Source: an uncultured Chloroflexia bacterium (GTDB lineage Bacteria; Chloroflexota; Limnocylindria; Limnocylindrales; CSP1-4). From it: a DNA stretch of 64,000 bases. Positions 7,032 through 33,645 of this stretch are shown here, piece after piece. The DNA lies in the NCBI GenBank assembly GCA_963813535.1, contig CAWEZH010000001.1, forward strand, positions 32,001 to 96,000, given 5' to 3'. A program made the position numbers and the translations under genes. Below the pieces are notes generated by a model. The model worked only from the letters and a program-made list of their open reading frames with translations, ran no database searches and was not told where the DNA came from. Within the stretch, counting starts at the first letter, position 1. Every line of letters starts with the position of its first letter.

Positions 7032-8690
7032 ATGGGCGGACTCGTCCTCGTCAACGGTCGCGTATCCACCGCACGGCCCGGGGAGCCGCCGTTCAGCGGC
7101 GGTCTCGCGATCGTCGGCGACCGGATCGTGGCGGTCGGTGGAGACAGTGCCGTTCGGGTGATGGCACCACCCGAGGCACAGCAGATCGACGTCGCCGGCC
7201 GGACGATCGTCCCGGGCTTCGTCGACCCGCACAACCACCTTGCATTCACCGGGGCGGAGCTCGCGTCGGTCGACGTCCGCTATCCCGGCGTGGCGTCGAT
7301 CGCCGATATCGTCGCCCGCATCGCAGACGCCGCGGAACGGACGCCCGATGGGACGTGGATCCGCGCCGTCGGCATGAACCCGGAGCAGTTCGCGGACGGC
7401 CGGCTGCCGACGCGCTGGGACATCGACGAGGCCACGCGCGTCCATCCGGTGCTCGTCCAGCACATGAGCGGTCACCACGCCCTCGCAAACAGCCTAGCCC
7501 TTGAGCGGCGTGGCCTGGCCGACTCCGCCGGCGACCCCGAGGGTGGTCACCTCGTGCGCGACGACCGCGGCCGCATCACGGGCTACTGTCTCGATGCGGC
7601 CCAGGCCCTGGTCGTGCCCATCGCGGTCGATATCGGTCACCACGGGCCGGGCTTCCACGACGACGCACCGCTGGAGGAGATCGTCGGCGACATCGACCGT
7701 GGCGCCCGCGCCTACCTCGCCGCCGGCATCACCTCGATCGTGGACGCCCAGGTCACGCGTCGCGAGCTGGAGGGCTATCGCCGTGCGCGGGAGCGCGGCA
7801 TGCTCGGCGTGCGGGTGACGGCCATGCCGATCTCGTCCCAGCTCGAGGAGTACACCGCCATCGGTCTGAACGGACGGTTCGGCGATGACCGGCTGGCGAT
7901 CGGTCCGATGAAGTTCTACGCGGACGGTGCGCTGACGGGTGGGACGGCGGCATTCTCCGCACCGTATGGCGCGAACGGCGAGTTCCAGGGCTCGCTGTAC
8001 TGGCGCTCGGAGGACGAGTTCCGCGACGCCATCCGCAGCGCACACATGGGCGGCTGGCAGATCGGCGTCCACGCGCAGGGCGATCGCGCGATCGACCGCG
8101 TCCTCGACGCGTACGAGCCCGCGCTCGAGGCGCAGCCGCGTGACGACCACCGCCACCGGATCGAGCACTGCGGCGGCCCGCGACCGGACCAGCTCGAGCG
8201 GATGGCGAGACTCGGCGTCATGGCCGTCGGCCAGCCTCGCTACTTCTGGGATGCCGGCGACGCCTGGCTCACGGCCATCGACACGGAGCGCGTCCAACGC
8301 CTCCAGCCCTATCGCGAGATGAGCGACGCCGGGGTCCGGTTCGCGTTGTCCAGCGATGCGCCGGTCGCGTCATACAAGCCACTCGACACCATCTGGTCGG
8401 CGGTCACGCGGACGACGGTCGGCGGCGCGATCGTCGGGCCGGACCAGGCCCTCACCGTGGAGGAGGCGCTGCGTGCCTGCACGTTCGACGCGGCGGCGTC
8501 CTATTTCGCTGACGACCGGCTCGGCTCGCTCGAGGTCGGCAAGCTCGCCGACGTCGTGGTCCTCGACGGTGACCTGTTCGCGACGCCGATCGACCGACTC
8601 GGCGACGTCGGCGTCGACCTGACCCTCGTCGGTGGGGAGATCGTCTACCGCGGTCCGCGCTGGAGGGCGACGAGCGACAGCATCTCGTAG
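7032..8690 (+). CDS. Metal-dependent amidohydrolase (YtcJ-like, amidohydro_3)
   Basis: PGFVDPHNH, KFYADG, VHAQGD, RIEH, SSDAP, GSLEVGKLADVVVLD. Divergent from the ABC operon; its 3' end overlaps the agmatinase 3' end. Confidence 0.88.
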   Translation: MGGLVLVNGRVSTARPGEPPFSGGLAIVGDRIVAVGGDSAVRVMAPPEAQQIDVAGRTIVPGFVDPHNHLAFTGAELASVDVRYPGVASIADIVARIADAAERTPDGTWIRAVGMNPEQFADGRLPTRWDIDEATRVHPVLVQHMSGHHALANSLALERRGLADSAGDPEGGHLVRDDRGRITGYCLDAAQALVVPIAVDIGHHGPGFHDDAPLEEIVGDIDRGARAYLAAGITSIVDAQVTRRELEGYRRARERGMLGVRVTAMPISSQLEEYTAIGLNGRFGDDRLAIGPMKFYADGALTGGTAAFSAPYGANGEFQGSLYWRSEDEFRDAIRSAHMGGWQIGVHAQGDRAIDRVLDAYEPALEAQPRDDHRHRIEHCGGPRPDQLERMARLGVMAVGQPRYFWDAGDAWLTAIDTERVQRLQPYREMSDAGVRFALSSDAPVASYKPLDTIWSAVTRTTVGGAIVGPDQALTVEEALRACTFDAAASYFADDRLGSLEVGKLADVVVLDGDLFATPIDRLGDVGVDLTLVGGEIVYRGPRWRATSDSIS

Positions 8691-9622
8691 GCCAGGTTCG
8701 CGGCGAGGAAGGCGGTCTGACCGGCCGGGTCGTAGGCCGGGATGACCTCGACGACGTCGAACCCGACGAAGTCGATGTCGGTGAGGCGCCGGACGATCGC
8801 CAGCGCGTCATGCGAGGAGAGGCCGCCGGGCTCCGGCGTCCCGGTCCCGGGCGCGAATGCCGGGTCGACCACGTCGATGTCGTAGCTGATGAAGGCCGTG
8901 GCGTCACCGACCCGCTCGCGGATCCGCTCGGCGGTGGCTACGGGCCCGATATCGAGGACCTCCTCGGTGGTGAGGTACTCGAGACCGAGCTCATCGCGCA
9001 GGTCTGTCCAGTCATCCTTGTCGTACACCGACCCGCGCAGCCCGACCTCGATGGAGTGGCCGACGTCGACCAGGCCCTCCTCGATCGCGCGGCGCATCCA
9101 CGTCCCGTGGTTGTACTTCTCGCCGAAGTAGCTGTCCCAGGCGTCGGTATGCGAGTCGAAGTCGATCACCGCGACCGGGCCCCGCGAGCGGGTCGCCCGC
9201 AGGTGCGGCAACGTGCACGCGTGATCGCCTCCGATGAGGAGCGGCACGACACCGGCCTCGACGATCGGCGCCACGGTCTGCTCGATGGCCTCGTAGCTGC
9301 GCTCGATGTAGCCCGGCACGATCGACACGTCGCCGTAGTCGACGCAGGACAGGATGTCGAACGGCTTGACATCGAGATTGGCGTTGTAGGGCCGCAGCAT
9401 CACGCTGGCCGCGCGGACGCCGTTCGGCCCGAAGCGCCCGCCGGCGCGGTACGTCACGCCAGTGTCGAACGGCACCCCGACGATCACCAGATCGACGTCT
9501 TCGAGCGTGCGAACGTAGGGCAGTCGGGCGAAGGTCGACGGTCCGGTGAAGCGCGGGCTCTTGAGCGAGTCCTCCGGGCCATAGCGCGGCGGCCCGGCGC
9601 GCCGCGCACTCCGCGTGCTCAT
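8645..9622 (-). CDS. speB: Agmatinase / ureohydrolase family
   Basis: GVPFD, GGRFGP, GGDH, DSHTD, SYDIDVVDPAFAPGTGTPEPGG, FDVVEV. ATG overlaps the cphA stop (ATGA, 9619-9622). Exact substrate not certain. Confidence 0.85.
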   Translation of the reverse strand: MSTRSARRAGPPRYGPEDSLKSPRFTGPSTFARLPYVRTLEDVDLVIVGVPFDTGVTYRAGGRFGPNGVRAASVMLRPYNANLDVKPFDILSCVDYGDVSIVPGYIERSYEAIEQTVAPIVEAGVVPLLIGGDHACTLPHLRATRSRGPVAVIDFDSHTDAWDSYFGEKYNHGTWMRRAIEEGLVDVGHSIEVGLRGSVYDKDDWTDLRDELGLEYLTTEEVLDIGPVATAERIRERVGDATAFISYDIDVVDPAFAPGTGTPEPGGLSSHDALAIVRRLTDIDFVGFDVVEVIPAYDPAGQTAFLAANLAYEMLSLVALQRGPR

Positions 9623-12495
9623 CCCTCCGGCGCCTCGAGCTCGCCCGGATCGGCGAAGGCCGTGCCGCCACGCGATGCGCCGGTCGCCGACATCGCCTCG
9701 CGATAGACGGCGATCGCGTCGTCGACGCAGCACACGACGAGGTCACCCGGCATCGCTCGACGCAGCGCCGTACGGACGGCGGTCATCTCGTCGAGGACCT
9801 TGTCGGCCCTGCCCACGCGGGCCTCGCCCGCGGTCGTTGCCGAGCGGACGCCCTCGATGACATTGGTCGCCGTCTCGCCGGGTGCCCGACCTCGAAGGTT
9901 CTTGTCCTCGCGCACGATGATCTCGTCGAACGCGCCGGCCGCGATCGCGCCGTATCGGCGCTGGTCGTCGTCGCGCCGGTCGCCCGGGATGCCGAGCACG
10001 CCGATCGCCCGACCCGATCGGGCGGCGGACTTGCTCGCTCCGATCCGACCCGCCTTGGTCTGCGGCTCGACCATCATCCGCTGGACGAAGTCGGCCAGCT
10101 GGCGCATGCCATCGACGTTGTGGCAGTAGTCGATGACGACACGCACGCCGCCGACATCGAGCAGGTTGAGCCGCCCCGGCGCCTGGAAGAACGACGTCGA
10201 GAACGTGCGCAGACCCTGTCGGATGTCGTGCAGATGCGCGCCCGATGCCCACGCCGCCGCTGCGGCGGCCAGCGCGTTCGCCACGTTCATCCGCGCCCGG
10301 CCACCGAAGGTCGCCGGGATGAGGTGGGTGTAGAGGACCGGCATCTTGCGGCTCCCGAGCCGGAGCACGATCAGCTCGCCCTCCTTGGTCGGCTCGAGAC
10401 AGAACGCGGCATTGCCCCGTGACGTGTGACCGTCCACCCGGTCGAAGCCGTCTTCACCCTTCTCGGTCGCCATCGAGAACAGCACGACGCGGCCCGCACA
10501 GTGGCGGCCCATCCGGTAGACATGGCTGTCGTCGGCGTTGAGGACGGCCGTCCCGGAACGGGGAACTGCCTCGACCACCACCCCCTTCACGTTGGCGAGC
10601 TGACCGATCGAGTCGATACCGCCCAGACCGAGGTGGTCGCCGGTCACGTTGGTCACCACGGCTACGTCGTTGCGGTCGTAGCCGAGCCCTTCGCGCAGGA
10701 TGCCGCCGCGCGCGACCTCGAAGACCGCCGTATCGACCGTCGGGTTCTGCAACACCATCTGGGCCGACTTGGGCCCCGACATATCGCCCTTCTTGATGAG
10801 CCGGCCGTCGACCACGATGCCGTCGGTCGAGGTCATGCCGACCCGCCTGCCCATCAGCTTCAGGATGTGGGCGATCATCCGCACGGTCGTCGTCTTGCCG
10901 TTCGTGCCGGTCACCGCGAGGATCGGGATGCGCGACGGGTTGCCGGGCGGGAACAGGCCATCGATGACCGGCCGGGCGACGTACTGCGGCTCGCCTTCGG
11001 TCGGATGGGTGTGCATCCGGAACCCGGGCGCGGCGTTCACCTCGACGATCGCCCCGCCGGTCTCGCGGACGGGGGTCGTGATGTCGGGGCAGATGAAGTC
11101 GATTCCGGCCACATCGAGCCCGACGATCTGCGCCGCCGTCTCGGCGATCTCGACATTGTCGGGGTGGGCCTCGATCGTGCGGTCGATCGAGGTCCCGCCG
11201 GTCGACATGTTGCCGGTCAGCGCGAGCTTGATCCACGTGCCGTCGGGCGGGACGTCATCGAGGGCGTAACCCTGGACGCGGACGAGCTCCTCGGCCGCCT
11301 CGTCGAGCTTGATCCGGGTCAGCACCTTCTCGTGCCCGATGCCCCGGCGCGGGTCCTGGTTGGCAAGATCGACCAGCTGACGGACAGTGCGCTCGCCGTC
11401 GGCGGTCACGCTCGCCGGCACTCGCTCGGCGATGGCGGCGACCTTGCCGCCGATCACCAGGCAGCGGTAGTCGTTGCCAGCGACGTAGGTCTCGATCACC
11501 ACGTCCCCGGAGCGGCTCTGGGCGAGCGCACCAGGGAAGGCGGCGCGGACCTGCGCCTCCGAGCGCAGGTCGAGGTGGACGCCGCGGCCGTGGTTGCCGT
11601 CGAGCGGCTTGAGCACGCATGGGAACCCGAGTCGGGTCGCGACGCTGACGGCCTCGTCCTCGGTCGTGACGACGTCGGCGCGCGGGACCGGCAATCCGGC
11701 GCTGTCGAGCAGCCGGTTGGTCAGGCTCTTGTCCGAGGCGACGTCGACACCGATGGCCGATGTCTTCGAGGTCATCGTCGCCCGGATGCGCTGCTGGTGG
11801 ACACCGTGGCCGAACTGGACGAGCGAATGGCGGTCGAGCCGGATGAAGGGGATGTCGCGGCTGACCGCCTCGTCGATGAGCGCCTGCGTCGAGGGACCGA
11901 ACGCCTGTCGCTCGGCCAGCCGGATGAGACGCTCGAGCTCGTTCGCGAAGTCGAAGAAGAAAGCCTCGTCGTCGGGCGCGACCAGGTGGTTGACCAGGGC
12001 GACGGCCATCTTGCCGGCCTCGAGGCCGACCGCCTCCTCCTTGTACTCGTAGATGCAGTTGTACTGGCCGTGCACGCCCGCCGAGCGGGTCTTCCCGTGC
12101 CGAACGTCGGTGCCGGCAAGGTTCTGGAACTCGAGTGCGATGTGCTCGGCGATGTGGCCGGCCCACGTGCCCTCCTGGAGCCTCGTGACGAAGCCACCGC
12201 GACGGCCCAGCGAGCAGGCGTGGTCCTCGAGCGTGGGCAGGAGCGCGACGAGGGCGTCGCTGAACCCCGGGAGGCGGTTCGACGGGAACTCCTCGAGGAT
12301 GCCGAGGTCGACCAGCATCCGGATGACCGGCTCCCGCGCCCAGTAGTTCGGCCCGCGCAGCACGCGGGTCTCCAGGATCCGCAGCGTCGGCAGCGGCGTC
12401 GTGGGGACCGCCGTGGCAGGTGGCGTCGCCGACGCCGCGGTGCGCTTGGCGCGCGGGCGCTTGGGCTTGGCGGTCGGCTCGGCCGTCTCGGTCAC
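9619..12495 (-). CDS. cphA: Cyanophycin synthetase CphA1
   Basis: N domain with Cx19HxxEH (CSLGRRGG...GHIAEH); ATP-grasp (KPLDGNHGRGV, NMSTGG, EVNAAPGFRMH); Mur ligase (VTGTNGKTT, EVARGGILREGLG, DHLG, PGRLN, DYCHN). AGGAGG precedes GTG 12495. Confidence 0.96.
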   Translation of the reverse strand: MTETAEPTAKPKRPRAKRTAASATPPATAVPTTPLPTLRILETRVLRGPNYWAREPVIRMLVDLGILEEFPSNRLPGFSDALVALLPTLEDHACSLGRRGGFVTRLQEGTWAGHIAEHIALEFQNLAGTDVRHGKTRSAGVHGQYNCIYEYKEEAVGLEAGKMAVALVNHLVAPDDEAFFFDFANELERLIRLAERQAFGPSTQALIDEAVSRDIPFIRLDRHSLVQFGHGVHQQRIRATMTSKTSAIGVDVASDKSLTNRLLDSAGLPVPRADVVTTEDEAVSVATRLGFPCVLKPLDGNHGRGVHLDLRSEAQVRAAFPGALAQSRSGDVVIETYVAGNDYRCLVIGGKVAAIAERVPASVTADGERTVRQLVDLANQDPRRGIGHEKVLTRIKLDEAAEELVRVQGYALDDVPPDGTWIKLALTGNMSTGGTSIDRTIEAHPDNVEIAETAAQIVGLDVAGIDFICPDITTPVRETGGAIVEVNAAPGFRMHTHPTEGEPQYVARPVIDGLFPPGNPSRIPILAVTGTNGKTTTVRMIAHILKLMGRRVGMTSTDGIVVDGRLIKKGDMSGPKSAQMVLQNPTVDTAVFEVARGGILREGLGYDRNDVAVVTNVTGDHLGLGGIDSIGQLANVKGVVVEAVPRSGTAVLNADDSHVYRMGRHCAGRVVLFSMATEKGEDGFDRVDGHTSRGNAAFCLEPTKEGELIVLRLGSRKMPVLYTHLIPATFGGRARMNVANALAAAAAAWASGAHLHDIRQGLRTFSTSFFQAPGRLNLLDVGGVRVVIDYCHNVDGMRQLADFVQRMMVEPQTKAGRIGASKSAARSGRAIGVLGIPGDRRDDDQRRYGAIAAGAFDEIIVREDKNLRGRAPGETATNVIEGVRSATTAGEARVGRADKVLDEMTAVRTALRRAMPGDLVVCCVDDAIAVYREAMSATGASRGGTAFADPGELEAPEG

Positions 12496-22657: not shown

Positions 22658-24430
22658 CTAGGACACGACCGAGTCGATCAAGGCGCGCACCTCCGCCACC
22701 GACCCTGCGCGCAATGCCTCATGTGCGATCGCTGCGCAGGTCCCTGGGTCCAGGCCGAGCAGGGCGCTTCGCACGGATGCGATCGCGCTGGGGGTGACGC
22801 TCAGCTCATCCACGCCCAGCCCGACAAGCAGTGGGATGACCATCGGATCCGCGGCTGCCTCGCCGCACACCCCGACATGTCGTCCTCTGGTTCGGGCGGC
22901 GCGAACGACGCCCCCGATGAGCCTGATGATCGCCGGCTGAAGGGCGGATGCGAGGTCGGCGAGCTCCGGGTTCGTCCGGTCCGCCGCGAGCGTGTACTGC
23001 ACGAGGTCGTTCGTCCCGATCGAGAAGAACTCGGCAGTCTCGGCGAGCGTGTCGGCCATGATGGCGGCTGATGGCACCTCGATCATCACCCCGAGGGAGA
23101 TGCTCGCAGGCCGGGCTCCCGAGGATGCCTCCACACGCTCGGTCGCCGTGTCGAGACGCTCGCGCACCGACTGGAATTCTTCGCGAGTGGCGATCATCGG
23201 CACCATGACGCGGAGCTCGGCAGTGCCGGCCGCAAGCACCAATGCCGTGAGCTGGTCGTCGAGCGTCTGTGGCAACCGACGTGCAAGCCGGACACCACGT
23301 ACGCCGAGCGCCGGGTTCGACTCCGCGGGACCAGTCTGCCAGGGGGCGGGCTTGTCTCCGCCAACATCGAGCGTCCGGAACACGACGGGTCGACCGTCCA
23401 TGGCGGCGCGGATCCGCGCGTAGGTCGCCCGCTGTTCCTCGACCGTCGGCGGCGTGTGGCGTCCGAGGAACAGGAGCTCGGTTCGCACCAACCCGATGCC
23501 ATCCGCCCCGGCCGATAGTGCAGCATCCGCCTCGAACGGCGATCCCACATTTGCCGCCACCCGCACGGACACGGATGAGCCGGCGGTCGTGCGATCGGAT
23601 GGATCCGGGCGGGGGCGGGTTGTCGCCTGTCGACGCTCGGTGGCGTCCTGGAGCTGCATCACGTCCACCGCACCAGGCTCGATCACGACGCGCCCGCCCG
23701 TGCCGTCGACGGCGATCCTGGCGGCGTGCGGGATGCTCGTCGTCGCCGAACCGAGCCCGAGCACCATCGGGATCCCGAGGGCCCGCGCCACGATCGCCGC
23801 GTGCCCGGTCGCGGTCCCACCGCCCAGCGCGATCCCCGCCACGAGCTCGCGGCGGAGAGTGGCGACGGCTGACGGCTCGAGATCGGTGGCCACGACCACA
23901 GCGGGTTGGCCGTCGGGATGCCACAGGTCCGGCTGCTTCTCGCCGCGGATGTGGGCTGCCACCCGTCGTCCGACATCGCGAACGTCGGCAGCTCGCTCGC
24001 GGAAGTAGTCGTCATCGACGGCAGCGAGAGCATCCGCGTGCCGCGCGGTCACGGACAGGATCGCCTCGGCCGCGGTCGCGCCCGCCGCAATCTCGGCGAG
24101 CGCGGGCTCGACGATGCCCGGGTCCGTCGCGAACAACGCCTGAGCGGCGAAGATCGCCCCGACCTCCTCGCCGGCCAGCGACGCGGTCCGTGCACCCAGG
24201 GCCTCAAGGTCGATCGCCGCCGCGTCGAGCGCTGCGCGCAGGCGGCCCGCTTCGTCATCGTCACCTGGCGGGCCACCTTGGGGTGGCCGCATCTCTGACG
24301 AGATCGGATCCGCATGCAGGGCCCGTCCGATCCCCACCCCTGGGGATCCGGGCTGCCCCGTCAATGTCCACGGTTTGCTCGGGGTCGCTCGCAACGGCAC
24401 GCCGTCGACCCCGGGCACGGTCCGAGCCAT
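22658..24430 (-). CDS. ptsI: PEP-protein phosphotransferase (PTS enzyme I)
   Basis: GHAAIVARALGIP (phospho-His), GIGLVRTE, RTLDVGGDK, NPALGVRG, MIEVP, SIGTNDLVQY, GVCGE. Confidence 0.92.
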   Translation of the reverse strand: MARTVPGVDGVPLRATPSKPWTLTGQPGSPGVGIGRALHADPISSEMRPPQGGPPGDDDEAGRLRAALDAAAIDLEALGARTASLAGEEVGAIFAAQALFATDPGIVEPALAEIAAGATAAEAILSVTARHADALAAVDDDYFRERAADVRDVGRRVAAHIRGEKQPDLWHPDGQPAVVVATDLEPSAVATLRRELVAGIALGGGTATGHAAIVARALGIPMVLGLGSATTSIPHAARIAVDGTGGRVVIEPGAVDVMQLQDATERRQATTRPRPDPSDRTTAGSSVSVRVAANVGSPFEADAALSAGADGIGLVRTELLFLGRHTPPTVEEQRATYARIRAAMDGRPVVFRTLDVGGDKPAPWQTGPAESNPALGVRGVRLARRLPQTLDDQLTALVLAAGTAELRVMVPMIATREEFQSVRERLDTATERVEASSGARPASISLGVMIEVPSAAIMADTLAETAEFFSIGTNDLVQYTLAADRTNPELADLASALQPAIIRLIGGVVRAARTRGRHVGVCGEAAADPMVIPLLVGLGVDELSVTPSAIASVRSALLGLDPGTCAAIAHEALRAGSVAEVRALIDSVVS

Positions 24431-24434
24431 CGTG

Positions 24435-25112
24435 TCAGTCGCTCCCGGCGACATCCGCCAGCGCACGCAGCAGCAGCGCGGACGAGGTTGCCCCGGGGTC
24501 CTGGTGACCGATCGAGCGTTCGCCCAGGTATGACGCTCGACCCTTCGTCGCAAGCATCGGAACCGTGGCGGAGGCTCCTGCCTCGGCGGCGTCGGCCATC
24601 GCGAGGGTCACCGCCGCACCGTCGGCCCCGGCGCTATCGGCCTCGCGGCCGGCGGCTACAGCCGGTATGAGGGCATCGAGCATGGTCTTCTCACCCGCAG
24701 AAGCCTTCCCGAGCGACTGGATGCCACCTATCGCCGCCTCGAGGCCTGCGACCAGGGCCCCCCGACTGCTCGTTCCCTCGGGCAACGAGGCGATGGCACC
24801 GGCGGCCCGCACCAGCGCGGTCCCGTACAGCGGACCCGCGGCGCCTCCGACGGTGCTGATCAACGTGCGGCCGGCCGCTCGGAGCCGCGCCGCACCCATA
24901 GCGAGCTCGCCCTCCGCATCGGGAAGTCCACCATCGAGGCTCGCGACGATCGCGGCAAACCCGCGGTCCATGTTGGTGCCGTGATCCCCGTCACCGATCG
25001 CCTGGTCGAGGGCGGTGAGAGCCGCCGCGTGTTCGTGGATGCGCGCCGCGGCAAGGCGCAGCCAGGCATCGATGATGTCGATCACGATTAGGTACCTCGA
25101 CGGTGTCGTCAT
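24435..25112 (-). CDS. dhaL: Dihydroxyacetone kinase ADP-binding subunit
   Basis: LDQAIGDGDHGTNM, GGAAGPLYG, GEKTMLD, KGRASYLGERSIGHQDPGATS. Start uncertain (25112 or a GTG near 25086). Confidence 0.92.
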   Translation of the reverse strand: MTTPSRYLIVIDIIDAWLRLAAARIHEHAAALTALDQAIGDGDHGTNMDRGFAAIVASLDGGLPDAEGELAMGAARLRAAGRTLISTVGGAAGPLYGTALVRAAGAIASLPEGTSSRGALVAGLEAAIGGIQSLGKASAGEKTMLDALIPAVAAGREADSAGADGAAVTLAMADAAEAGASATVPMLATKGRASYLGERSIGHQDPGATSSALLLRALADVAGSD

Positions 25113-25171
25113 GCCGAGTCTAGAAGGCGGCCGCCGCGCGAAGGCATCCTGCGCGGCGGCCACCGTGGTGG

Positions 25172-26194
25172 TCAGATGCCCCAGCGCAAGGCCGGAGTGT
25201 TGACCGGTGCGTCCCACCATCGAATGAGCGCATCATCCAGCCGCAGCAGGGTCACGGAGAACCCGGCCATCTCCAGGCTGGTGATGTAGTTCCCGACCAG
25301 CGAACGTCCGATCGAGATGCCCTGCCCCCCAAGGATCTTCGCGACGCTATTGAACGCCACGTAGAGCTCGATGAGCGGTGTGCCACCCATGCCATTCACG
25401 AAGGCCAAGACCGCATCGCCGCGGCTGAGTCCAAGGTCCGAGACGATCGGCGACACTAGCCACTCGGCCATGTCGTCGACCGGAGCGAGCTTCTCGCGGC
25501 GGCGGCCCGGCTCGCCGTGGATGCCGATGCCGACCTCGACCTCGTCGTCGGGCAAGTCGAACGTCGGCGTGCCGGCCGCTGGCACGACGCACGACGTCAG
25601 CGCCAAACCCATCGACTTGCCCTGCTCATTGACCTTGGTCGCCGTCGCGGCCACCTCCGCCAACGAGCCGCCGGCCTCGGCATGCGCGCCGGCGATCTTC
25701 TCGAGCAGGACCGTGACGCCGACACCACGCCGGCCCGCCGTATAGAGCGAGTCCTGGACCGCCACGTCGTCGTTGGTGACGACGGTCGCGACCTCGATCT
25801 CGCCAGCCACGAGCTCGGAGGCGAGTTGGAAATTCAGCACGTCCCCGGTGTAGTTCTTGACGATGTGCAAGACGCCGGCCCCGCCATCGACGGCCCGTGT
25901 CGCGGCCTCCATCTGGTCAGGTACCGGCGACGTGAAGACATTGCCGGCGGCTGCCGCGTCGAGCATGCCCAGGCCGACGAAGCCGCCATGGAGGGGTTCG
26001 TGACCGGAGCCACCGCCGGAGATCAGGGCGACCTTGCCCCGCTTCGGCCCGCCGGCGCGGAGGACGAGATTCTGGCTCAGGTCCACTTTGACAAGGTCCG
26101 GGTGAGCGGCCTGCATGCCGCTGAGGCTCTCGGGGACGATGTCCTCGATCGCGTTGAAGAGCTTCTTCACGCGGGTCGGTGCGGTGGTCGCCAT
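25172..26194 (-). CDS. dhaK: Dihydroxyacetone kinase substrate-binding subunit
   Basis: [47 protein letters not shown]. Confidence 0.95.
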
Positions 26195-26245: not shown

Positions 26246-27013
26246 TCAAGCGGCTTCGTGGGCGTGCTCGGCGACTGCCGCGCCCGGCACGGTGGCCGTA
26301 CGCGTGTGGCCGATGAACTGGTACGCGAAGGCGCCGACGAGACCGCCGACGATGGGGCCAGCCACGTAGACCGGGAGCAGGGCTCCGAGGTTGGTCTTCG
26401 AGCCGATGATCAGCTCGAGGATCTCGGGACCGATCTGGCGGGCCGGGTTCAGCGCGGCGCCGGTGATCGGGCCGACCAGGATGATGATCCCGTACACGAT
26501 GAAGCCGATCACGATCCCGGCGAAACCGGCCGGGGCTCGGCCGTCGACGGCGGCACCGAACACCGTGAAGACGAGGATCGCCGTGCCGATGACTTCGGCC
26601 GCGAAGCCGATGCCGATGCCGGCGTTGGCATTGACATCGACCGCGCCCAGACCAAGGGCGACGGGGTCATTGCCGGTCAGGATGATCAGCGTCAAGCCGG
26701 CGCCGAACAGCGCGCCGACGAGCTGCGCGCCGATGTACCCGATCGCGGTATTGGTGTCGATCTTGCGGGTCGCGAGCAGGGCGATCGTCACCGCGGGGTT
26801 GATGTGGCAGCCGCTGATGTGGCCGACCGAATACACCGCCGCGAAGATCGCGAAGGCGAAGGCGAACGAGATCGTCGAGAGTTCGGCGCTGCCGAACGGG
26901 TTCTCGCCGGTCAGCAAGAGGGTGAGCGGGACCGAACCTGCGCCGATGAAGACGAGGATCGCGGTACCGATCGCTTCGGCTGTCAGTTTCTGGGACATGG
27001 TCGGGGACGACAT
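26246..27013 (-). CDS. MIP family channel (aquaporin/glycerol facilitator)
   Basis: Two NPA boxes (SGCHINPAVT, ALNPAR) and six TM helices. Confidence 0.93.
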   Translation of the reverse strand: MSSPTMSQKLTAEAIGTAILVFIGAGSVPLTLLLTGENPFGSAELSTISFAFAFAIFAAVYSVGHISGCHINPAVTIALLATRKIDTNTAIGYIGAQLVGALFGAGLTLIILTGNDPVALGLGAVDVNANAGIGIGFAAEVIGTAILVFTVFGAAVDGRAPAGFAGIVIGFIVYGIIILVGPITGAALNPARQIGPEILELIIGSKTNLGALLPVYVAGPIVGGLVGAFAYQFIGHTRTATVPGAAVAEHAHEAA

Positions 27014-27042: not shown

Positions 27043-27312
27043 TCAGCCGGCCTGGCTGACGTATGGGGCGAGCTCCGCCCGAAGGGCGGCGAGCGCGGCA
27101 TCGGCATCTGGGCCATCCGCCGCGAGGGTGATCTCGGATGACGGTCGGATGGTCATCCCGAGTAGGGCGATGAGGCTTTTCGCGTCCGCCTCGCGACCGT
27201 CCTGCCGGACGATGATCCGGCTGGTGAATCGACTCGCCGCCTGGACGAATCGAGCCGCTGGCCGCGCGTGGAGCCCGGATGGGTCAAGGACGACGAGACG
27301 GATCTCCGACAT
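27043..27312 (-). CDS. ptsH: HPr phosphocarrier
   Basis: GLHARPAA (His15) and DAKSL (Ser46). Confidence 0.93.
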   Translation of the reverse strand: MSEIRLVVLDPSGLHARPAARFVQAASRFTSRIIVRQDGREADAKSLIALLGMTIRPSSEITLAADGPDADAALAALRAELAPYVSQAG

Positions 27313-27315
27313 CTG

Positions 27316-27720
27316 TCAGTCCCGCGGCAACTTGGCCATGGTCGCGGCCGATCCGGCCGCGGTAACGACCTCGTCGATCGACGCGCCGACGCTGGCCTGG
27401 ACGGCGGCGAGCACGGCGCCCTCGACGAGTGGCGCCTCGCTGATGCGGACCCGGGCTCGGTCCGTGTCGCTCAGGTCCTCGAGCGCCAGCTCGAGACTCA
27501 ACGCGGCGCTTCCGAGATCAAGCAGGACGACCGCGCCATCGGCGCGGTCGAGAACGAAACGGACCGCCTCGCCGATGCGCAGTGCGCTCGTACCTAGACG
27601 GCCATCCTCGGTCCCGCCCGCGGTCGCCACCGGAACGGCTGCACCCGCCACCTGCGCGACCATCTCGCGCAGGCCCTCGACAAGCGTGCTGCTGTGGGAA
27701 ACGAGGATCAGGCCCACCAA
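27316..27720 (-). CDS. dhaM: Dha kinase phosphotransferase subunit (EIIA-Man-like DhaM)
   Basis: VGLILVSHS, GGTEDGRLGTS, DLGSA, APLVEGA; AAAGGAGG RBS before a TTG start. Confidence 0.9.
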   Translation of the reverse strand: MVGLILVSHSSTLVEGLREMVAQVAGAAVPVATAGGTEDGRLGTSALRIGEAVRFVLDRADGAVVLLDLGSAALSLELALEDLSDTDRARVRISEAPLVEGAVLAAVQASVGASIDEVVTAAGSAATMAKLPRD

Positions 27721-27793
27721 GCGCGCCTCCTTTCACATCCGGGTGGGTTGCACCCGGGTTGTCGGTCGGGAGCGATCCTCCGCCCGATGTCGT

Positions 27794-27830
27794 CAAGAAG
27801 AAAGCAAGGGCGCAGCAAGAGGTGCGCAGA
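27794..27830. promoter_or_regulatory. 11-bp phased direct repeats, putative OmpR/PhoB-family regulator site
   Basis: CAAG starts at 27794, 27805 and 27816, and CAGA at 27827 (exact 11-bp period), in the dhaM/dhaL2 divergent intergenic region. The leftmost repeat overlaps TTGACG on the minus strand. Confidence 0.6.
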
Positions 27831-27906
27831 ATGTCGCGATCCGGAGGTGGGTCCCGCACAGATGGCGTTGCCCCGGTGTCGGCGACTGGACTATCGTCGG
27901 CCGACC

Positions 27907-28560
27907 GTGTCCGCCCGGCCGTCACCCCCGAGTCACGACATCATCGATGCGACCGCGATCTGCGCTGCCCTCGGTCGCTGTCGCGTGATGGTCGAGCGGC
28001 ATTCCACCTACCTGACCCGGCTCGATGCGATCCTCGGCGACGGTGACCATGGCGACAATCTGGTGATCGGCTTCCGTGCCGTCGACACGATGCTCATGGA
28101 CCTTCCCCGAGGCACGCCACCCGGCGAGGTGTTGCGGGCCGTCGGACATCGATTGGTCGCCGCCGTCGGGGGAGCGTCCGGACCCCTCTACGGCACGGCC
28201 TTCCTCGAGGCAGGGGCCACGGCCGGGGACGCGCCGACCCTCGACTCGTCGCTACTCGGCCCGATGTTGTCTGCCGCAGCCGACGGCCTCGCCCGCCGTG
28301 GACGGTGCGCCCTGGGCGACAAGACGATCCTTGACGCCCTCAGACCCGCGGCCGACGCATTCCTCGAGTCGATCACAGAGGGTCGGTCGCCGGCTGATGC
28401 GATGGCCGCCGCGGTGCGGGGGGCGGCCCGTGGGATGCGAGCGACCCGCCCCCTCGTCGCCCGGCGGGGGCTCGCCTTGCGACTCGGTGAACGCTCCATG
28501 GGCCATCTCGATCCAGGAGCCGTCTCGTGTGTCCTCCTGCTCAAGGCGATCGGTGGCTGA
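27907..28560 (+). CDS. Second DhaL (DAK2 domain) paralogue, possibly regulatory
   Basis: LDAILGDGDHGDNL, GGASGPLYG, GDKTILD, GERSMGHLDPGA; GRASYLG is replaced by GLALRLG. Start uncertain (GTG 27907 or ATG 27988). Confidence 0.85.
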   Translation: MSARPSPPSHDIIDATAICAALGRCRVMVERHSTYLTRLDAILGDGDHGDNLVIGFRAVDTMLMDLPRGTPPGEVLRAVGHRLVAAVGGASGPLYGTAFLEAGATAGDAPTLDSSLLGPMLSAAADGLARRGRCALGDKTILDALRPAADAFLESITEGRSPADAMAAAVRGAARGMRATRPLVARRGLALRLGERSMGHLDPGAVSCVLLLKAIGG

Positions 28561-30169
28561 GCGAGCCAGGTCGTCCGTGCGGATGGACATGGTGGACAAG
28601 TCCGCGCTACTGAGCCGGATCGACGCGCTCGAGCGTGACCGACGACGGGCGTTCGATGATGCCCAGCGCGAGGCAGATGCCCTCTTCGCTCAATACCAGC
28701 TCAGCCAGCTCATCTCGACCGGCGGGACCCTCCAGGAGCTGACTGGTGCCGTCCTGCTGGAGCTGCTACGCCTGGCCGACGCGGCCGGTGGTGCATTGTG
28801 GATCGGCGATCACGGTGAGACAGGCATCAACCTCGTGACGACCGTCGGGTCCACACCCGACGCGTCGATCGAGGCGACGTTCGCGGACATCGACGCCCTG
28901 CGAAGCTGGGCAGCGTCCCTGCCCGGTGCCAGCGACATGCAGCTTGGGGACGCGGTCCTACGGGCGGCGATCGTGATCTGGCCGGCAGCCGGGCAGGACC
29001 TCGATGAGGATGGGCTCCGGATCGTCCTGCTCGCACGACACGAGCTGCTGGTCGCCTTGCAGGGCGCCCGGCTCCGGGAGGCACTGGAGCGAGAGCGCGA
29101 CGAGCTGGGCGCCATCGTCGACGGCGCCACCGACCTGATCCTGCAGGTCGACGCGGACGGCTCGGTCGTGCGGCTGAACCCGGCCGGCGAACGATTGCTC
29201 GGCATCGCGGCTGAGGCGGCTGTCGGTCAGTCGTGTGCGGACGTGCTCGGCTGCGAGATCGCCGGTGGGCACGCATCGGTCGAATGCCCGCTGGCCGAGG
29301 TGCGCAGCACCGGCCAGCCGATCGCCTATCGCGAGTCAGCGATCCGTGGAGCCGCTGGAGCCCCGATCCGGGTCGCCGGCAGCTTCGCGGTATCGGGTAC
29401 GACCTCCGGATCCGATGCTCGCGCGACGGCCATCCTGCGTGATATCAGCGCCGTCCAGGCGCTCGAGGAATTGCGCGAGGGTTTCGTCGCGACGGTGAGT
29501 CACGAACTTCGGACACCCTTGGCCCTCATCCGTGGGTATGCCGAGACACTCCTTCACCTCCCGCTCGAACCGGACCAGCAGCGCGCCTACGTCGAGCGGA
29601 TCGATGAGGCCACCAATCGGCTCGCGACTCTCGTCGACGAGGTTCTCGACGTCACCCATCTCCAGGCCGATCCGCTGATCCTCGATCGTCGGGTGACGAC
29701 GTTCGACTCGCTCGTTGCCCGCTTGCGCGGCGACCTCGCGATGTCGCGGCAGGACGAGCGTCTCGTCGTCGATGCCAGCCCCGACCTCCCGGAGATCGAG
29801 GTCGATATCACGCGCGTCGGCCAGATTCTGGCGAACCTGGTGGGCAATGCGATGAAGTACGCGCCGGAGAGCAGCCTCGTGGTCCTGGGCGGGACCATCG
29901 CTGACGACCAGTGGCTGGCGGTCACTGTCGACGACGAAGGCATCGGCATCCCCGAGCAGGAGCGAGTCCTCGTCACCGAGCCGTTCCATCGCGCGTGGAA
30001 CGTTCGCGAGTCGCGCATCCCCGGGACCGGCCTTGGCCTGTTCATCTCGCGTCGCCTGGTGGAGGCCCACGGTGGTGAGCTCAGCGTGGGCGATCGCCCG
30101 GACGGCCGCTCCGGCACGCAGGTGCGGATCACGCTGCCACTCGCGTCGAACCAGCCCGACGATGGCTGA
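28553..30169 (+). CDS. Soluble sensor histidine kinase (coiled coil, GAF-like, PAS, HisKA, HATPase)
   Basis: VSHELRTPL H-box, NLVGNAMKY, DEGIGI, GTGLGL; PAS (VDADGSVVRLNPAGERLLG); no TM segment; overlaps the dhaL2 stop. Confidence 0.92.
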   Translation: MAERARSSVRMDMVDKSALLSRIDALERDRRRAFDDAQREADALFAQYQLSQLISTGGTLQELTGAVLLELLRLADAAGGALWIGDHGETGINLVTTVGSTPDASIEATFADIDALRSWAASLPGASDMQLGDAVLRAAIVIWPAAGQDLDEDGLRIVLLARHELLVALQGARLREALERERDELGAIVDGATDLILQVDADGSVVRLNPAGERLLGIAAEAAVGQSCADVLGCEIAGGHASVECPLAEVRSTGQPIAYRESAIRGAAGAPIRVAGSFAVSGTTSGSDARATAILRDISAVQALEELREGFVATVSHELRTPLALIRGYAETLLHLPLEPDQQRAYVERIDEATNRLATLVDEVLDVTHLQADPLILDRRVTTFDSLVARLRGDLAMSRQDERLVVDASPDLPEIEVDITRVGQILANLVGNAMKYAPESSLVVLGGTIADDQWLAVTVDDEGIGIPEQERVLVTEPFHRAWNVRESRIPGTGLGLFISRRLVEAHGGELSVGDRPDGRSGTQVRITLPLASNQPDDG

Positions 30170-30872
30170 CACGGTCCTCATCGTCGAGGACGAACCCGAA
30201 TTCCTCGGCCTGGTCGAGTTGTGGGTGGGACAGGCGGGCTTCCGGACCGTCACTGCCCGCACCGGGCCCGATGCACTGCGCCGCTTCTACGACGAGCGCC
30301 CGGACCTCGTGGTCCTCGACGTCGCATTGCCCGGCCTTGACGGCTGGCAACTGCTGGAGCGGCTACGCGAGTTCAGCCGCGTGCCGATCATCATGCTCAC
30401 GGCACGAGGCTCCGAAGCCGAGAAGATCCGTGGCTTGAAGCTCGGCGCCGACGACTACATCACGAAGCCCGTGTCCTTCCCCGAGCTCATCGCCCGCGTG
30501 GAAGCGGCCCTCCGCCGGGCGGGAACCAGCACGCCGGAGCGGTCGAGGCGGCTCCGTCACGGGGAGATGGTCGTCGACCTCGACGATCATCGAGCGCACC
30601 TGCGCGGCGTCGAGATCGACCTGACCCCGACCGAATTCCGCCTGCTCGCATTCCTGGTCGAGCACAGTGGTCAATTGGTCACCCATCGGCAGATGCTCGG
30701 CGGGGTCTGGGGAGCCGGCTACGACCGTGATGTCCACCTGCTGCGCATGACCGTCCGCAACCTGCGCCTCAAGCTCGATGCGGTCGCGCCCGGCGAATCG
30801 TTGATCGCGACGGAGTACGGCCTCGGCTATCGGCTCGTGGGCGCGCACTCGGACGACGCCGCCAGAAGCTAG
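30162..30872 (+). CDS. OmpR/PhoB-family response regulator
   Basis: VEDE, LVVLDVALPGLDG, MLTA, GADDYITKP, LTPTEFRLL winged helix, TEYGLGY. Confidence 0.95.
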   Translation: MADTVLIVEDEPEFLGLVELWVGQAGFRTVTARTGPDALRRFYDERPDLVVLDVALPGLDGWQLLERLREFSRVPIIMLTARGSEAEKIRGLKLGADDYITKPVSFPELIARVEAALRRAGTSTPERSRRLRHGEMVVDLDDHRAHLRGVEIDLTPTEFRLLAFLVEHSGQLVTHRQMLGGVWGAGYDRDVHLLRMTVRNLRLKLDAVAPGESLIATEYGLGYRLVGAHSDDAARS

Positions 30873-30968: not shown

Positions 30969-31547
30969 ATGCGTCGTTTCGTCTGGTTCCCGCTGCTCCT
31001 GGTCGTGCTGCTCGTGACCGGCCTCGCCGCGCCCGTCGGCGCCGCGGCGGGTGCACCCAGTCCCGACGAGGTCGTGACCTTCGTCAGCCGCCCCGACCTG
31101 ATCCGGCAGGGTCTGATCCGGTCCGGCACTCCGGCGCGCACATCGACACAGGCGCTCTGCCTGTTCGACTGCATCTATGTCGCGAATCGCCGCTATCTGC
31201 GGACGGTGAAGCCGTTCGTGACCATGGTCAAGGGCAATGGACCGGCCACGATCGCCATCGACATCACCCGCACCGTGAAGAACAGCTTCTCCGCGACGGT
31301 CGGCGTCACCGCCCAGGTCGTGACGGCCGGTGTCGGGTTCAGCGTCGAGCGGTCGGAGAGCGTGACGTATCGGTCGAGCACGAGCGTGCCCAACAAGGCG
31401 TGCTGGACGATGCGTGCCTACAACGTCTTCTTCGAATACGCGTTCGAGGTGTGGCGAGAGCCGTTCATCGGGGCCGACACCAAGATCGGCTCTGGCACAG
31501 CACGGGACTTCCAGGGCATCGAGTTCCGCCTCTCGAAGTCGTGCTGA
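30969..31547 (+). CDS. Secreted beta-rich protein, possible aerolysin/ETX-like pore-forming fold
   Basis: Sec signal peptide; Ser/Thr-alternating segment TVKNSFSATVGVTAQVVTAGVGFSVERSESVTYRSSTSVP. The fold call is tentative. Confidence 0.6.
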   Translation: MRRFVWFPLLLVVLLVTGLAAPVGAAAGAPSPDEVVTFVSRPDLIRQGLIRSGTPARTSTQALCLFDCIYVANRRYLRTVKPFVTMVKGNGPATIAIDITRTVKNSFSATVGVTAQVVTAGVGFSVERSESVTYRSSTSVPNKACWTMRAYNVFFEYAFEVWREPFIGADTKIGSGTARDFQGIEFRLSKSC

Positions 31548-31930
31548 TCCGGCTGGCGGCTGCGGTCGGGCTCGCGTGGTCGGCGGTGGCGTGCGCGAGC
31601 GCGCCGCCGACCGGCTCGCCCGTCCCGCCGGCCGCCCGTGTCGTCGCCCGGTGGGTCGCCGCCGACGCCTCGATCGTGGTGCTGAACGTGTCGCTCGAGC
31701 GCGGGTTCGATCGTCGCCGGATCCCGGTGCAGGCGCGCATCTACCGGCAAGCGCACCCGGCCTCCCGACTCATCATCACGTTCTTCGATGACACGGCCGG
31801 CCAGGAACGGTTCGTGATCGGCCATGTTCCGACCGACGGCTCGGCCCTCCCCGCCGGCCGACCGGCATCGGCCATCGCGACCTTCGACTTCCCGAGACCG
31901 ACGCCGACGGCTACGAACGGTGCGCCGTGA
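31541..31930 (+). CDS. Hypothetical lipoprotein
   Basis: GTG overlapping the upstream stop (GTGCTGA); signal LIRLAAAVGLAWSAVA-C lipobox. Confidence 0.6.
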   Translation: MLIRLAAAVGLAWSAVACASAPPTGSPVPPAARVVARWVAADASIVVLNVSLERGFDRRRIPVQARIYRQAHPASRLIITFFDDTAGQERFVIGHVPTDGSALPAGRPASAIATFDFPRPTPTATNGAP

Positions 31931-33603
31931 TGGCTCCCGGATCAAACAAGCGAACGGGCTCGTCAGCGGTGTGGACATCGAAGCCGGCGCGCTCGAGCAG
32001 CCGCCGCGCGATCGCGGAGCGGGTCTCGCGCGGCAACGGATCGACGACGTCGCGCTCCGCCACGGTGACGTGCGCGTCGCTGGGTGACGTTGCGTGGTGA
32101 CGGAGGAGTTCGGTCGCCACCCCCTGCCGCCGGAACGCCGGCGCGACACCCACCGCGAGCAACTCGCGACCGCCGTCGCGTGGGTCGCTCGGTGTGGACA
32201 GCGCAAGACCGACCACGGTCGAGCCGACCAGCACGGCAGACACGACCGCCGGGTCGCTCGCCCCGAGCGCGGCGGCGACCAGGGCGTAGGCGGAGACCGG
32301 ATCCGCCGGCGCGATCACGCGGGGCGCCAGCGCGAGATTCGCCCACGTGGCGGCCTCGACCCGTTCGATGATGGTCGGGGTACCGGCGATCGCCTCGGGC
32401 GCACCTGGCATCGAACCGGACGGTTCGGCCATCGGGTCCCACCACCCGTTCTCGATCGCCGCGACGAGCAGCCGGGGCGTCACCACGCTCTGCTGTATGG
32501 CGCCCGTGGCATAGGCCTGCTGATCGGCCACCTCCTGGGCGGCGTCCACAGGAAGGCCGGCGTTCGGTTCGTCGGTGAACCGCTCTGGGAGCGGCGCCTG
32601 ACCGTACCGAGCCGCCTCGGCCGACCAGCGGTCCCGCCACGCCTCCGGCGTGGCGTCCGGCACCTCAAGGTGCGCGCCGGCGAGCCAGGTGAGTGCCCAG
32701 GTCCGGGGTACCACTCGATAGGCGTCGTAGCCGCCACCGCCCGTGGCGAGCCACCGTCCCCGCCCATGCCGATGGGCGATCGAAATCGACGAGGCGGGCG
32801 GCCTCGCCATGCGCGGTCGTCGTCACGTTGAGGTGTGCCAGGGGATCCCACGCATGCGAATCGGCGCCATGCTGGGAGACGATGAGATCCGGCCCGAACG
32901 CGGCGGCCAGCGCGGGCAGGTGCCAGCGGACGACCTGCGTCCAGGCCGCCTCCCCGGTGAACGGTGGCAGCGGGACGTTGACGGCCGTCCCGGCCGCGGC
33001 TCCCTCCCCGACCTCGGTGACATCGCCGGTCCCCGGGAACAGATAGCGTCCGCTCTCATGGATCGAGAACGTCAGGACGCCGGGATCGTCCCAGAAGAGC
33101 GCCTGCACGCCGTCGCCGTGGTGCACGTCGAGGTCGATGTACATCACCCGCAGTCCGTCTCGCCTGGCGCGGGCGATCGCGAGCGCGGGATCGTTGTAGA
33201 TGCAGAACCCCCAGGCGCGATCCCGCATGGCGTGATGGAGACCGCCACCCGGGTGGAAGGCGTGCTCGACGTCCCCCCGCAGGATCGCCTCCATCGCCCG
33301 GACCGAGCCACCGGCGACCGCCGCGGCCGCCTCGTGCATGTCCAGGAACGGCGGGTTGTCCTGGATCCCGATGCCTGATTCCGGGAGCCCGTAGGGATCG
33401 ATCGAGAAACGCTTCACGACATCGACGTACTCGGGCGAATGGCACATCAGGAGGTCCGCATCCGACGCCGGTTCGGGCGCGAGATCAGGCTCCGCCCCGA
33501 CCGCCCGGAGCAGGTCGAAGCCCGGCCCGAACCGGCGCGGCGTCAACGGATGGCCGGGCCCGAAGTCGTAGTCGGTCGATCGGGGGCCGAAGACGAGCAG
33601 CAT
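31911..33603 (-). CDS. acuC: AcuC/HDAC-family deacetylase with C-terminal GNAT-like domain; one frameshift near 32784
   Basis: HP..P.RF, GGLHHA, GFCIYND, DLDVHHGDG, LFPGTG, GADSH in ORF 32665..33639. It continues (GGGGY...VAPAFRRQGVATELL) in ORF 31911..32810 if one T is removed from GATTTCG at 32783-32785. Confidence 0.82.
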
Positions 33604-33645
33604 GCTGCGCACGATACCGAGTGACGGCCGCGCTACCATCCGTCG

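Follow-up and report, generated by a model that had tools for sequence, protein, structure and literature searches.

Gene organization of the locus

We analyzed a stretch of 64,000 nucleotides (the window) from the genome of an uncultured Chloroflexia bacterium (assembly GCA_963813535.1, contig CAWEZH010000001.1, positions 32,001 to 96,000), in which a second copy of dhaL (the gene for the ADP-binding subunit of PEP-dependent dihydroxyacetone kinase), here called dhaL2, precedes the genes of a soluble histidine kinase and of an OmpR/PhoB-family response regulator. Positions are those of the window unless another locus is named. A first-pass annotation of this DNA had described the triplet as divergent from a dha operon, and the gene content assigned with Pfam and NCBIfam models bears this out: dhaL2, kinase and regulator lie on the plus strand, and a gap of 186 bp (27721-27906) divides them from the complete dhaM-HPr-MIP-dhaK-dhaL-ptsI operon on the minus strand. 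The G+C content of the region is 68-72%. The triplet consists of the following genes.

27907..28560, plus strand: dhaL2, 217 aa (Pfam Dak2, E 1.1e-45; TIGR02365, 180.7 bits against a cut-off of 138.3)
28553..30169, plus strand: soluble histidine kinase, 538 aa counted from GTG 28553 (Pfam PAS, HisKA and HATPase_c)
30162..30872, plus strand: OmpR/PhoB-family response regulator, 236 aa (Pfam Response_reg and Trans_reg_C)

The divergent dha operon is made up as follows.

27316..27720, minus strand: dhaM, first gene of the operon, single-domain EIIA-Man-type phosphoryl donor (PF03610, E 2.6e-25; TIGR02364, 128.6 bits, cut-off 98.25)
27043..27312, minus strand: HPr-type phosphocarrier (PF00381, E 4.5e-25)
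26246..27013, minus strand: MIP-family channel, GlpF-like (PF00230, E 2.7e-47)
25172..26194, minus strand: dhaK, dihydroxyacetone-binding subunit (PF02733 Dak1, E 5.3e-124)
24435..25220 (listed open reading frame), minus strand: canonical dhaL with the GRASYLG loop (Dak2, E 5.2e-45; TIGR02365, 197.1 bits)
22658..24439, minus strand: ptsI-type enzyme I, last gene of the operon (PEP-utilizers N, mobile and C domains; TIGR01417, 442.8 bits, cut-off 341.7)

Since conservation of the canonical dhaL product sets in only near residue 60, its true start is probably a later codon than that of the open reading frame, e.g., the Met codon at about 25112. The successive overlaps within the triplet that had been described from the sequence can be formed at both junctions as an 8-nt overlap of the type xTGGCTGA (GTGGCTGA at 28553-28560 and ATGGCTGA at 30162-30169), the first of them only if the kinase starts at GTG 28553 and not at one of the alternative starts ATG 28583 and ATG 28589.

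DhaL2 keeps the nucleotide-site motifs and carries an altered loop

The motif reading of the first-pass annotation, a second DhaL that keeps DGDHG but in which the conserved loop is changed, proved correct. DhaL2 contains GDGDHG at residues 44-49 and GLALRLG at residues 188-194, where the canonical copy at 24435 reads GRASYLG. In the PDB its sequence is matched best by 3PNL and 2BTD, both of them E. coli DhaL (E about 3e-31), and the alignment places D40, D45 and D47 of DhaL2 at D30, D35 and D37 of the E. coli protein, which passages of PMC9136124 and PMC10848957 give as the ligands of two Mg ions. The segment G188-L-A-L-R-L-G194 stands in place of G177-R-A-S-Y-L-G183 of E. coli DhaL.

The loop was compared in 24 loci, namely the window, 12 further loci of the same genus and 11 of other genera. 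GLA[LMV]RLG was found in each of the 21 kinase-linked copies that are intact, and GRASYLG in each of the 28 remaining Dak2 copies of these loci. The latter sequence was also present in each of 29 canonical loci of other phyla recovered in a species scan (see below) and in 68 of the 150 best library representatives. The aspartates D40, D45 and D47 and the motifs GGASGPLYG and GDKT are invariant in the 21 DhaL2 copies and are found in the canonical copies as well; a DPGA motif is likewise common to both groups. Five positions, at least 90% conserved within each group and different between the groups, discriminate DhaL2 from canonical DhaL: L43 (canonical I), I141 (M), R187 (K), L189 (R) and R192 (Y). 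The two copies also differ in position, with the GRASYLG copy following dhaK and dhaL2 standing not directly behind dhaK but at the head of the divergent operon, with the kinase next. Public records name DhaL2 as DhaL, the catalytic subunit, because it clears the DhaL equivalog model TIGR02365.

Two cysteines of DhaL2 are invariant in the 21 copies, C134 (28306-28308, in RRGRC) and C208 (28528-28530, in AVSC). The canonical DhaL of the window's genus has GKA and ATS(S/A) at these places, and C134 adjoins the interface predicted below.

Seven of the loci from other genera have one more DhaL copy, the third, in which the GRASYLG loop is intact; these copies are among the 28 counted above. The extra gene is placed between dhaM and the MIP gene in some loci and, in convergent orientation, just past the regulator in others. 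The coordinates of these copies, each within its own locus, are as follows.

L078: 7117-7761, third dhaL copy
L079: 7042-7716, third dhaL copy
L082: 11350-11949, third dhaL copy
L086: 7043-7708, third dhaL copy
L081: 11327-11917, third dhaL copy
L083: 11326-11910, third dhaL copy
L084: 6725-7324, third dhaL copy

Conservation of the triplet and origin of DhaL2

The sensor region of the kinase was searched against 36 genomes of the same genus, many of them incomplete, and gave strong matches in 12 of these and in none of 24 genomes of a small-genome sister family. All 12 loci show dhaM-HPr-MIP(-dhaK-dhaL) divergent from dhaL2-kinase-regulator; at four of them the matches are in pieces, owing to frameshifts or errors of assembly, and at two the contig ends within the locus. 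Of 401 sampled genomes of the phylum, only 11 more gave matches to the whole sensor; they belong to the window's family and to one other family of the same class, and elsewhere in the sample the PAS part alone was matched. Two unpublished genomes of this search carry none of the conclusions. The triplet is present in all 11 loci from other genera, with dhaM directly divergent in 10; at locus L085, MIP-dhaK-dhaL is divergent from the triplet and dhaM lies 7.5 kb off. The order dhaL2-kinase-regulator is thereby kept across at least nine genera.

In addition, one genome per species was scanned, and the best 80 of 495 confirmed stretches comprised 51 DhaL2-type and 29 GRASYLG-type loci, the former sharing several genomes with the same-genus and phylum-sample sets. 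The 51 DhaL2-type loci carry labels of Chloroflexota-type metagenome-assembled genomes (MAGs), except for one labeled 'Eisenbacteria' and one labeled 'Anaerolineaceae'. The sensor was found downstream of dhaL2 in 50 of them, the kinase core in 50, the regulator in 47 and a divergent dhaM in 49; at the four loci without a regulator match the contig runs out 564-1975 nt past dhaL2. The distance from the dhaL2 stop to the Phe codon of a conserved helix in the kinase (described below) is 44-143 nt (median 71.5; 42 of the 51 loci, those matching a strict helix pattern). In contrast, the 29 GRASYLG loci, which are mostly from Actinomycetota and none from Chloroflexota, all carry the gene behind dhaK in the same orientation and are without the kinase. 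Synteny of the triplet beside dha genes, the test that the first-pass annotation had set, was thus found at all same-genus (12), other-genera (11) and DhaL2-type species-scan (51) loci. As the loop change and the gene order both recur in every related locus examined, they are more than chance.

The close relatives of DhaL2 are all metagenomic, and those with a name are 'Candidatus Limnocylindrales' or uncultured Chloroflexota MAGs. This speaks for an uncultured Chloroflexota lineage as the source of the window and against the actinobacterial origin that 70% G+C might suggest. When a DhaL2 profile was searched against 1.84 billion representatives, the top clusters with GLA[LM]RLG were P0124-P0126, P0133 and P0137, plus N-terminal fragments; P0128 has GLALRLG followed by a PDS variant, and P0127 has the variant GLAMQYG. 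Canonical GRASYLG proteins start at about 215 bits and below. In an unrooted tree built with IQ-TREE in quick mode from 193 Dak2 rows, 175 of them different and with the motif columns kept in, the DhaL2 copies lie on one side of a single branch. Its Shimodaira-Hasegawa-like approximate likelihood ratio test value is 100, and the stem is 0.56 changes per column long. To judge from this tree, DhaL2 is of single origin.

The histidine kinase and the response regulator

The kinase had been described as a protein with no transmembrane helix and with GAF-like plus PAS domains. The highest mean Kyte-Doolittle hydropathy over 19 residues is 1.44 and no transmembrane segment is present, in agreement with a soluble protein. 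Structure models of the full protein and of residues 1-300 were obtained with predicted local distance difference test (pLDDT) values of 81 and 89, respectively. They show an N-terminal helix (residues 2-56, with an invariant block at 34-52), a GAF-like domain (60-160), a linker helix (162-191), a PAS domain (195-297), and the HisKA (299-372) and HATPase_c (380-530) domains. Eleven helix residues, F34, A37, Q38, A41, D42, F45, A46, Y48, L50, S51 and Q52, are invariant in 20 kinase orthologues. So are H317 (H-box His) and N432, D461/G463/G465 and G491/G493/G495 (N, G1 and G2 boxes) of the kinase core, which is recognized by Pfam with E values of 1.6e-17 (HisKA) and 6.1e-24 (HATPase_c).

The PAS domain is found by Pfam and its fold is matched by PAS/LOV domains (Z 13-14, root mean square deviation about 2.1-2.8 over about 101-104 residues) in a comparison that covered essentially residues 178-300. 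No GAF domain was detected by Pfam, so that this half of the description stands only as 'GAF-like', on the grounds of a small alpha/beta domain in the model (residues 60-160), of Foldseek matches to sensors containing GAF, aligned over about 290-340 columns, and of language-model neighbours of residues 1-170 that are named GAF proteins (score 0.92-0.93). With residues 1-300 as the query, Foldseek returned bacteriophytochromes at the top (E about 1e-9) and chains of the E. coli DhaR N-terminal region (4lry_C, 4lrx_C and 4lrz_H) at ranks 10, 11 and 14, with E 1.8e-8 to 7.5e-8 over 284-291 columns, template modelling scores of 0.37-0.39 and 12-15% identity, values that other GAF/PAS sensors equal or surpass. 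A profile search of PDB sequences with the kinase sensor gave no DhaR match and only weak PAS matches (best E 0.011), and a fold search with the whole kinase was dominated by kinase cores and says nothing on the sensor. The sensor architecture is DhaR-like, yet shared descent is not established.

Three cysteines of the PAS domain, C228, C234 and C245 (29234-29287), are invariant in the 20 orthologues, and a few residues ahead of C245 there is a His in close genera and a fourth Cys in distant genera. This set of residues may form a metal or iron-sulfur site and hence a second input.

The regulator has the expected receiver and DNA-binding domains (Response_reg, E 3.5e-28; Trans_reg_C, E 4.5e-19). 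By reading of the sequence, E9, D10, D53, T80 and K102 sit at the usual receiver positions. The best NCBIfam matches, PhoB and MtrA, are both under the cut-off.

Kinase paralogues with and without DhaL2

Two loci provide natural controls for the linkage between DhaL2 and the kinase helix. At L087 and L088, paralogous kinase-regulator pairs lie beside a MIP gene without DhaL2; their kinases keep the GAF-like and Cys-PAS domains and lack the helix motif, which is present in the DhaL2-linked kinase (L076) of the same genome as L087. The coordinates are 8623-10539 (L087) and, for the kinase, about 8.8-10.4 kb (L088), and both pairs are divergent from the MIP gene. A pair of this type may regulate the glycerol-type channel via another signal.

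A further arrangement was found on one metagenomic contig (L170). A DhaL2-like gene at 885-1541, with the loop GLAMQYG and RRGRC kept, lies about 130 nt ahead of a related kinase gene at 1674-2921; the helix of this kinase, FRDSQEQADDLFALYQITQ, is a diverged form of the motif. The protein is extended by about 130 N-terminal residues ahead of the helix, and its PAS domain has four Cys.

Predicted complex of DhaL2 and the kinase

One complex prediction was made with kinase residues 1-195 and DhaL2, both with purpose-built alignments. The interface score ipSAE (interaction prediction score from aligned errors) had a median of 0.63 (0.68, 0.62 and 0.63 in the individual runs), as compared to 0.04 for the best of three controls. 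At least 96% of the contacts were common to the runs, and the pLDDT of the partner was at least 90. The mark applied to this score is reached by 116 of 157 solved complexes and by 2 of 215 mismatched pairs, counts that are rough here owing to the purpose-built alignments. The first-pass annotation had taken DhaL2 for a co-sensor of the kinase; of this proposal, the physical link has thus gained support in silico, and the prediction suggests that DhaL2 binds the kinase.

On the kinase side the predicted interface comprises residues 31-74, and on the DhaL2 side D45 and residues 89-90, 93, 97, 100-101, 104, 127, 130-133, 186-189 and 191-194. In the model, the mouth of the DhaL2 nucleotide site together with the altered loop would therefore rest on the invariant N-terminal helix of the kinase. 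Invariant positions are enriched among the contacts of both proteins, with 9 of 22 kinase contacts as against 12 of 173 residues elsewhere (p 7e-5) and 13 of 21 DhaL2 contacts as against 45 of 196 elsewhere (p 4e-4); the relatives are non-independent, so both p values overstate the significance. Three of the five group-discriminating positions of DhaL2 fall in the predicted interface. An alignment check by eye of DhaL2 191 against kinase 66 gave no pattern of covariation, which is not assessable here because the interface is nearly invariant.

The segment that caps the nucleotide site of DhaL inserts into DhaK and DhaM, according to a passage of PMC9136124. DhaL2 may plausibly use for the kinase the same face that DhaL uses for DhaK and DhaM.

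Intergenic DNA and neighbouring genes

Two features were recognized in the DNA between the divergent operons.

27794..27831, no strand assigned: candidate array for binding of the regulator, with three CAAG repeats at a period of exactly 11 bp (27794-27819) and CAGA one period further
27867..27897, plus strand: promoter-like boxes for dhaL2, GTTGCC at 27867-27872 and TATCGT at 27892-27897

The triple CAAG pattern has one match in the window, where 0.04 are expected, and one match in the whole 3.28-Mb genome, where a control pattern has none. The block TCAAGAAG..AGCAAG is kept across three genera in an alignment of 15 loci. Direct repeats spaced by one helical turn are used by OmpR/PhoB proteins, and by analogy the array would be a candidate site for binding of the regulator. 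A terminator-like match in the intergenic region lies inside the array and was not taken as a terminator.

Both promoter-like boxes are kept in the 15-locus alignment, in the forms CGTTGCC and CTA(C/T)(A/C/G)(C/G)TC, i.e., a TA(C/T)NNT box, and we regard them as putative promoter boxes of dhaL2. A scan of the intergenic region with the sigma-70 consensus found no promoter. The start of dhaL2 at GTG 27907 is backed by the conserved -10-like box just upstream in the 15 aligned loci. Since the TATCGT box ends 9 nt ahead of this codon, the dhaL2 transcript may be leaderless.

The genome (3.28 Mb, 3 contigs) contains three Dak2 domains, two of them within the window. The third is located on contig 2 at 530310-530801 (L003) inside a 571-aa open frame, which we take to be probably a DAK2-fusion protein of the YloV/FakA kind. 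Downstream of the regulator (30969-33639), the window contains a 192-aa open reading frame without a Pfam match (30969-31547), a GNAT acetyltransferase gene and a histone-deacetylase-family gene. Beside the triplets of the same genus, the acetyltransferase gene recurs in 10 of the 12 loci, the deacetylase gene in 9 and the 192-aa frame in only 4.

Proposed role of DhaL2

Taken together, our results suggest that DhaL2 is probably a dedicated protein co-sensor of the soluble kinase, non-catalytic or only weakly catalytic, and that the system is a two-component counterpart of E. coli DhaR/DhaL. How such a co-sensor might work can be outlined by analogy. The operon's own enzyme I and HPr would feed DhaM, and phosphorylated DhaM would turn DhaL2-ADP into DhaL2-ATP. 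When dihydroxyacetone is turned over by DhaK and DhaL, the relay would be drained and DhaL2 would remain loaded with ADP. One nucleotide form of DhaL2, the ADP form if E. coli DhaL and DhaR are a guide, would bind the kinase helix and shift the balance of kinase and phosphatase activities. The phosphorylated regulator would then bind the CAAG repeats spaced by 11 bp and control both the dha operon and its own operon. The ADP/ATP signal in this scheme is modeled on the E. coli system. We propose only tentatively that DhaL2-ADP is charged by phosphorylated DhaM, that the resulting state is read by the kinase helix, and that the output follows the dihydroxyacetone-dependent drain of the phosphotransferase system (PTS) relay as in DhaR/DhaL.

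In more general terms, DhaL2 could be a protein-bound nucleotide switch, charged from PEP by way of the operon's enzyme I, HPr and DhaM, with the kinase helix sensing the presence or absence of the gamma-phosphate at the mouth of the barrel, so that phosphotransfer flux would be sensed via an enzyme paralogue and not via a small molecule. Such a switch would have arisen once, by duplication of the catalytic subunit and remodelling of its DhaK-facing loop into a kinase-binding surface. This is a possibility to which we give somewhat less than even weight.

Several points weigh against the co-sensor proposal. All genomes are uncultured MAGs and the whole case is computational. DhaL2 scores above the cut-off of the DhaL equivalog model and has lost none of the nucleotide motifs, so residual catalysis is possible. 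The E. coli complex of DhaL with the DhaR GAF-PAS region is already solved (4LRZ), and the success of the predicted binding may therefore partly reflect likeness to a known complex; this concern is countered by the kinase sensor having no sequence match to DhaR and the low identity in the structural alignment given above. Conservation of the CAAG array extends over the three closest genera only, and distant genera differ in intergenic sequence. Loss of the loop Arg may prevent phosphoryl cycling, in which case there would be no ADP/ATP signal. The three invariant PAS cysteines point to another input, possibly even the principal one, and DhaL2 may be no more than a structural partner.

This last point leads to a different reading, in which DhaL2 binds the N-terminal helix but serves as a constitutive structural subunit or as a sensor of energy state in general, independent of DhaM and dihydroxyacetone, and reports the cellular ATP/ADP state or nothing, the stimulus (redox, metal or a small ligand) entering via the Cys-PAS domain. 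The predicted binding is silent on which signal is read, the PAS cysteines and the accompanying His or Cys are kept in the 20 orthologues, with the Cys found also in the paralogues that lack DhaL2, and the missing loop Arg may block the phosphotransfer chemistry. However, the strict linkage to the dha operon, rather than to other genes, at all 51 DhaL2-type loci of the species scan points to a dha-specific signal. The Mg-binding Asp triad, kept by purifying selection, points the same way, and a plain ATP/ADP sensor has no need to adjoin dhaM. We therefore consider this reading unlikely. DhaL2 could also be a decoy or modulator of the enzyme, competing with DhaL for DhaM or DhaK and tuning the flux, with its level tracking the regulon because it is co-transcribed. 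Its score above the DhaL equivalog cut-off and its intact nucleotide motifs would suit such a role, and the extra DhaL copies in the loci of several genera indicate that duplication of DhaL is common here. Those extra copies without kinase linkage, however, all retain GRASYLG, whereas the changed residues of DhaL2 are invariant and lie within the predicted kinase interface, and a decoy would leave unexplained both the invariant kinase helix and its absence from the paralogues without DhaL2; we consider it unlikely as well.

A reading of DhaL2 as just another active catalytic subunit, in a gene order without functional meaning, agrees with the automatic annotation as DhaL. Against it stand the replacement, in all DhaL2, of the motif seen in each of the 28 other copies and the 29 loci of other phyla, the long and fully supported stem branch of DhaL2, and the gene order kept in at least nine genera, which make this explanation highly improbable.

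If the nucleotide-switch reading is true, the PTS would be coupled directly to a histidine kinase, a kind of coupling not described in the literature searched. Confirmation of the co-sensor proposal would show how a catalytic subunit is turned into a signalling protein by few loop changes, would provide a clean case of a histidine kinase stimulated by the state of another protein, and would tie PTS phosphoryl flux to two-component signalling in the Chloroflexota, in which hardly any regulation has been studied. The locus also bears on annotation, in that genes passing the DhaL equivalog model carry the name of the catalytic subunit in public records.

Comparison with known systems

The statement of the first-pass annotation that no case of a DhaL paralogue feeding a histidine kinase had been described is uncontradicted by the literature searched: judged on titles and abstracts, no report of such a coupling was found. 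PMC4777399, a genomic-context study of the dha regulon, contains no mention of two-component systems.

The E. coli activator DhaR is, as stated in PMC10084136, activated by DhaL and repressed by DhaK according to the ATP/ADP load of DhaL. The E. coli DhaR/DhaL/DhaK system (solved complexes 4LRX, 4LRY and 4LRZ) and the locus studied here would have in common a DhaL-type signalling ligand, a cytoplasmic sensor of GAF-like domain, helix and PAS domain, and the adjacent divergent dha genes as the target of control, with the binding being a prediction in our case. The two differ in their output, since DhaR is an AAA+ DNA-binding activator, whereas here a kinase with HisKA and HATPase_c domains is paired with a separate OmpR-type regulator. 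In E. coli the catalytic DhaL itself signals, in contrast to the separate, loop-altered paralogue of the present locus, and the contact predicted here involves mainly the N-terminal helix.

In Lactococcus lactis, the TetR-type regulator DhaS uses DhaQ, a paralogue of DhaK, as a co-sensor for the dha operon. There, as proposed here, a dedicated paralogue of a kinase subunit serves as the co-sensor of a regulator of dha transcription, but a DhaK paralogue is combined with a one-component TetR protein, whereas here a DhaL paralogue is combined with a histidine kinase.

Accessory proteins that set the activity of histidine kinases by binding are known from PII with NtrB and from EIIA-Ntr with KdpD or PhoR. 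As proposed for DhaL2, a small cytoplasmic protein conveys a metabolic or PTS-phosphorylation state and shifts the output of the kinase. Unlike DhaL2, PII and EIIA-Ntr are not paralogues of an enzyme subunit with a tightly bound nucleotide, and they are not encoded by the first gene of the kinase operon beside the regulated pathway. Control by trigger enzymes and accessory proteins is thus already known, and it is the dedicated DhaL paralogue together with a two-component output that is new with respect to the literature searched.

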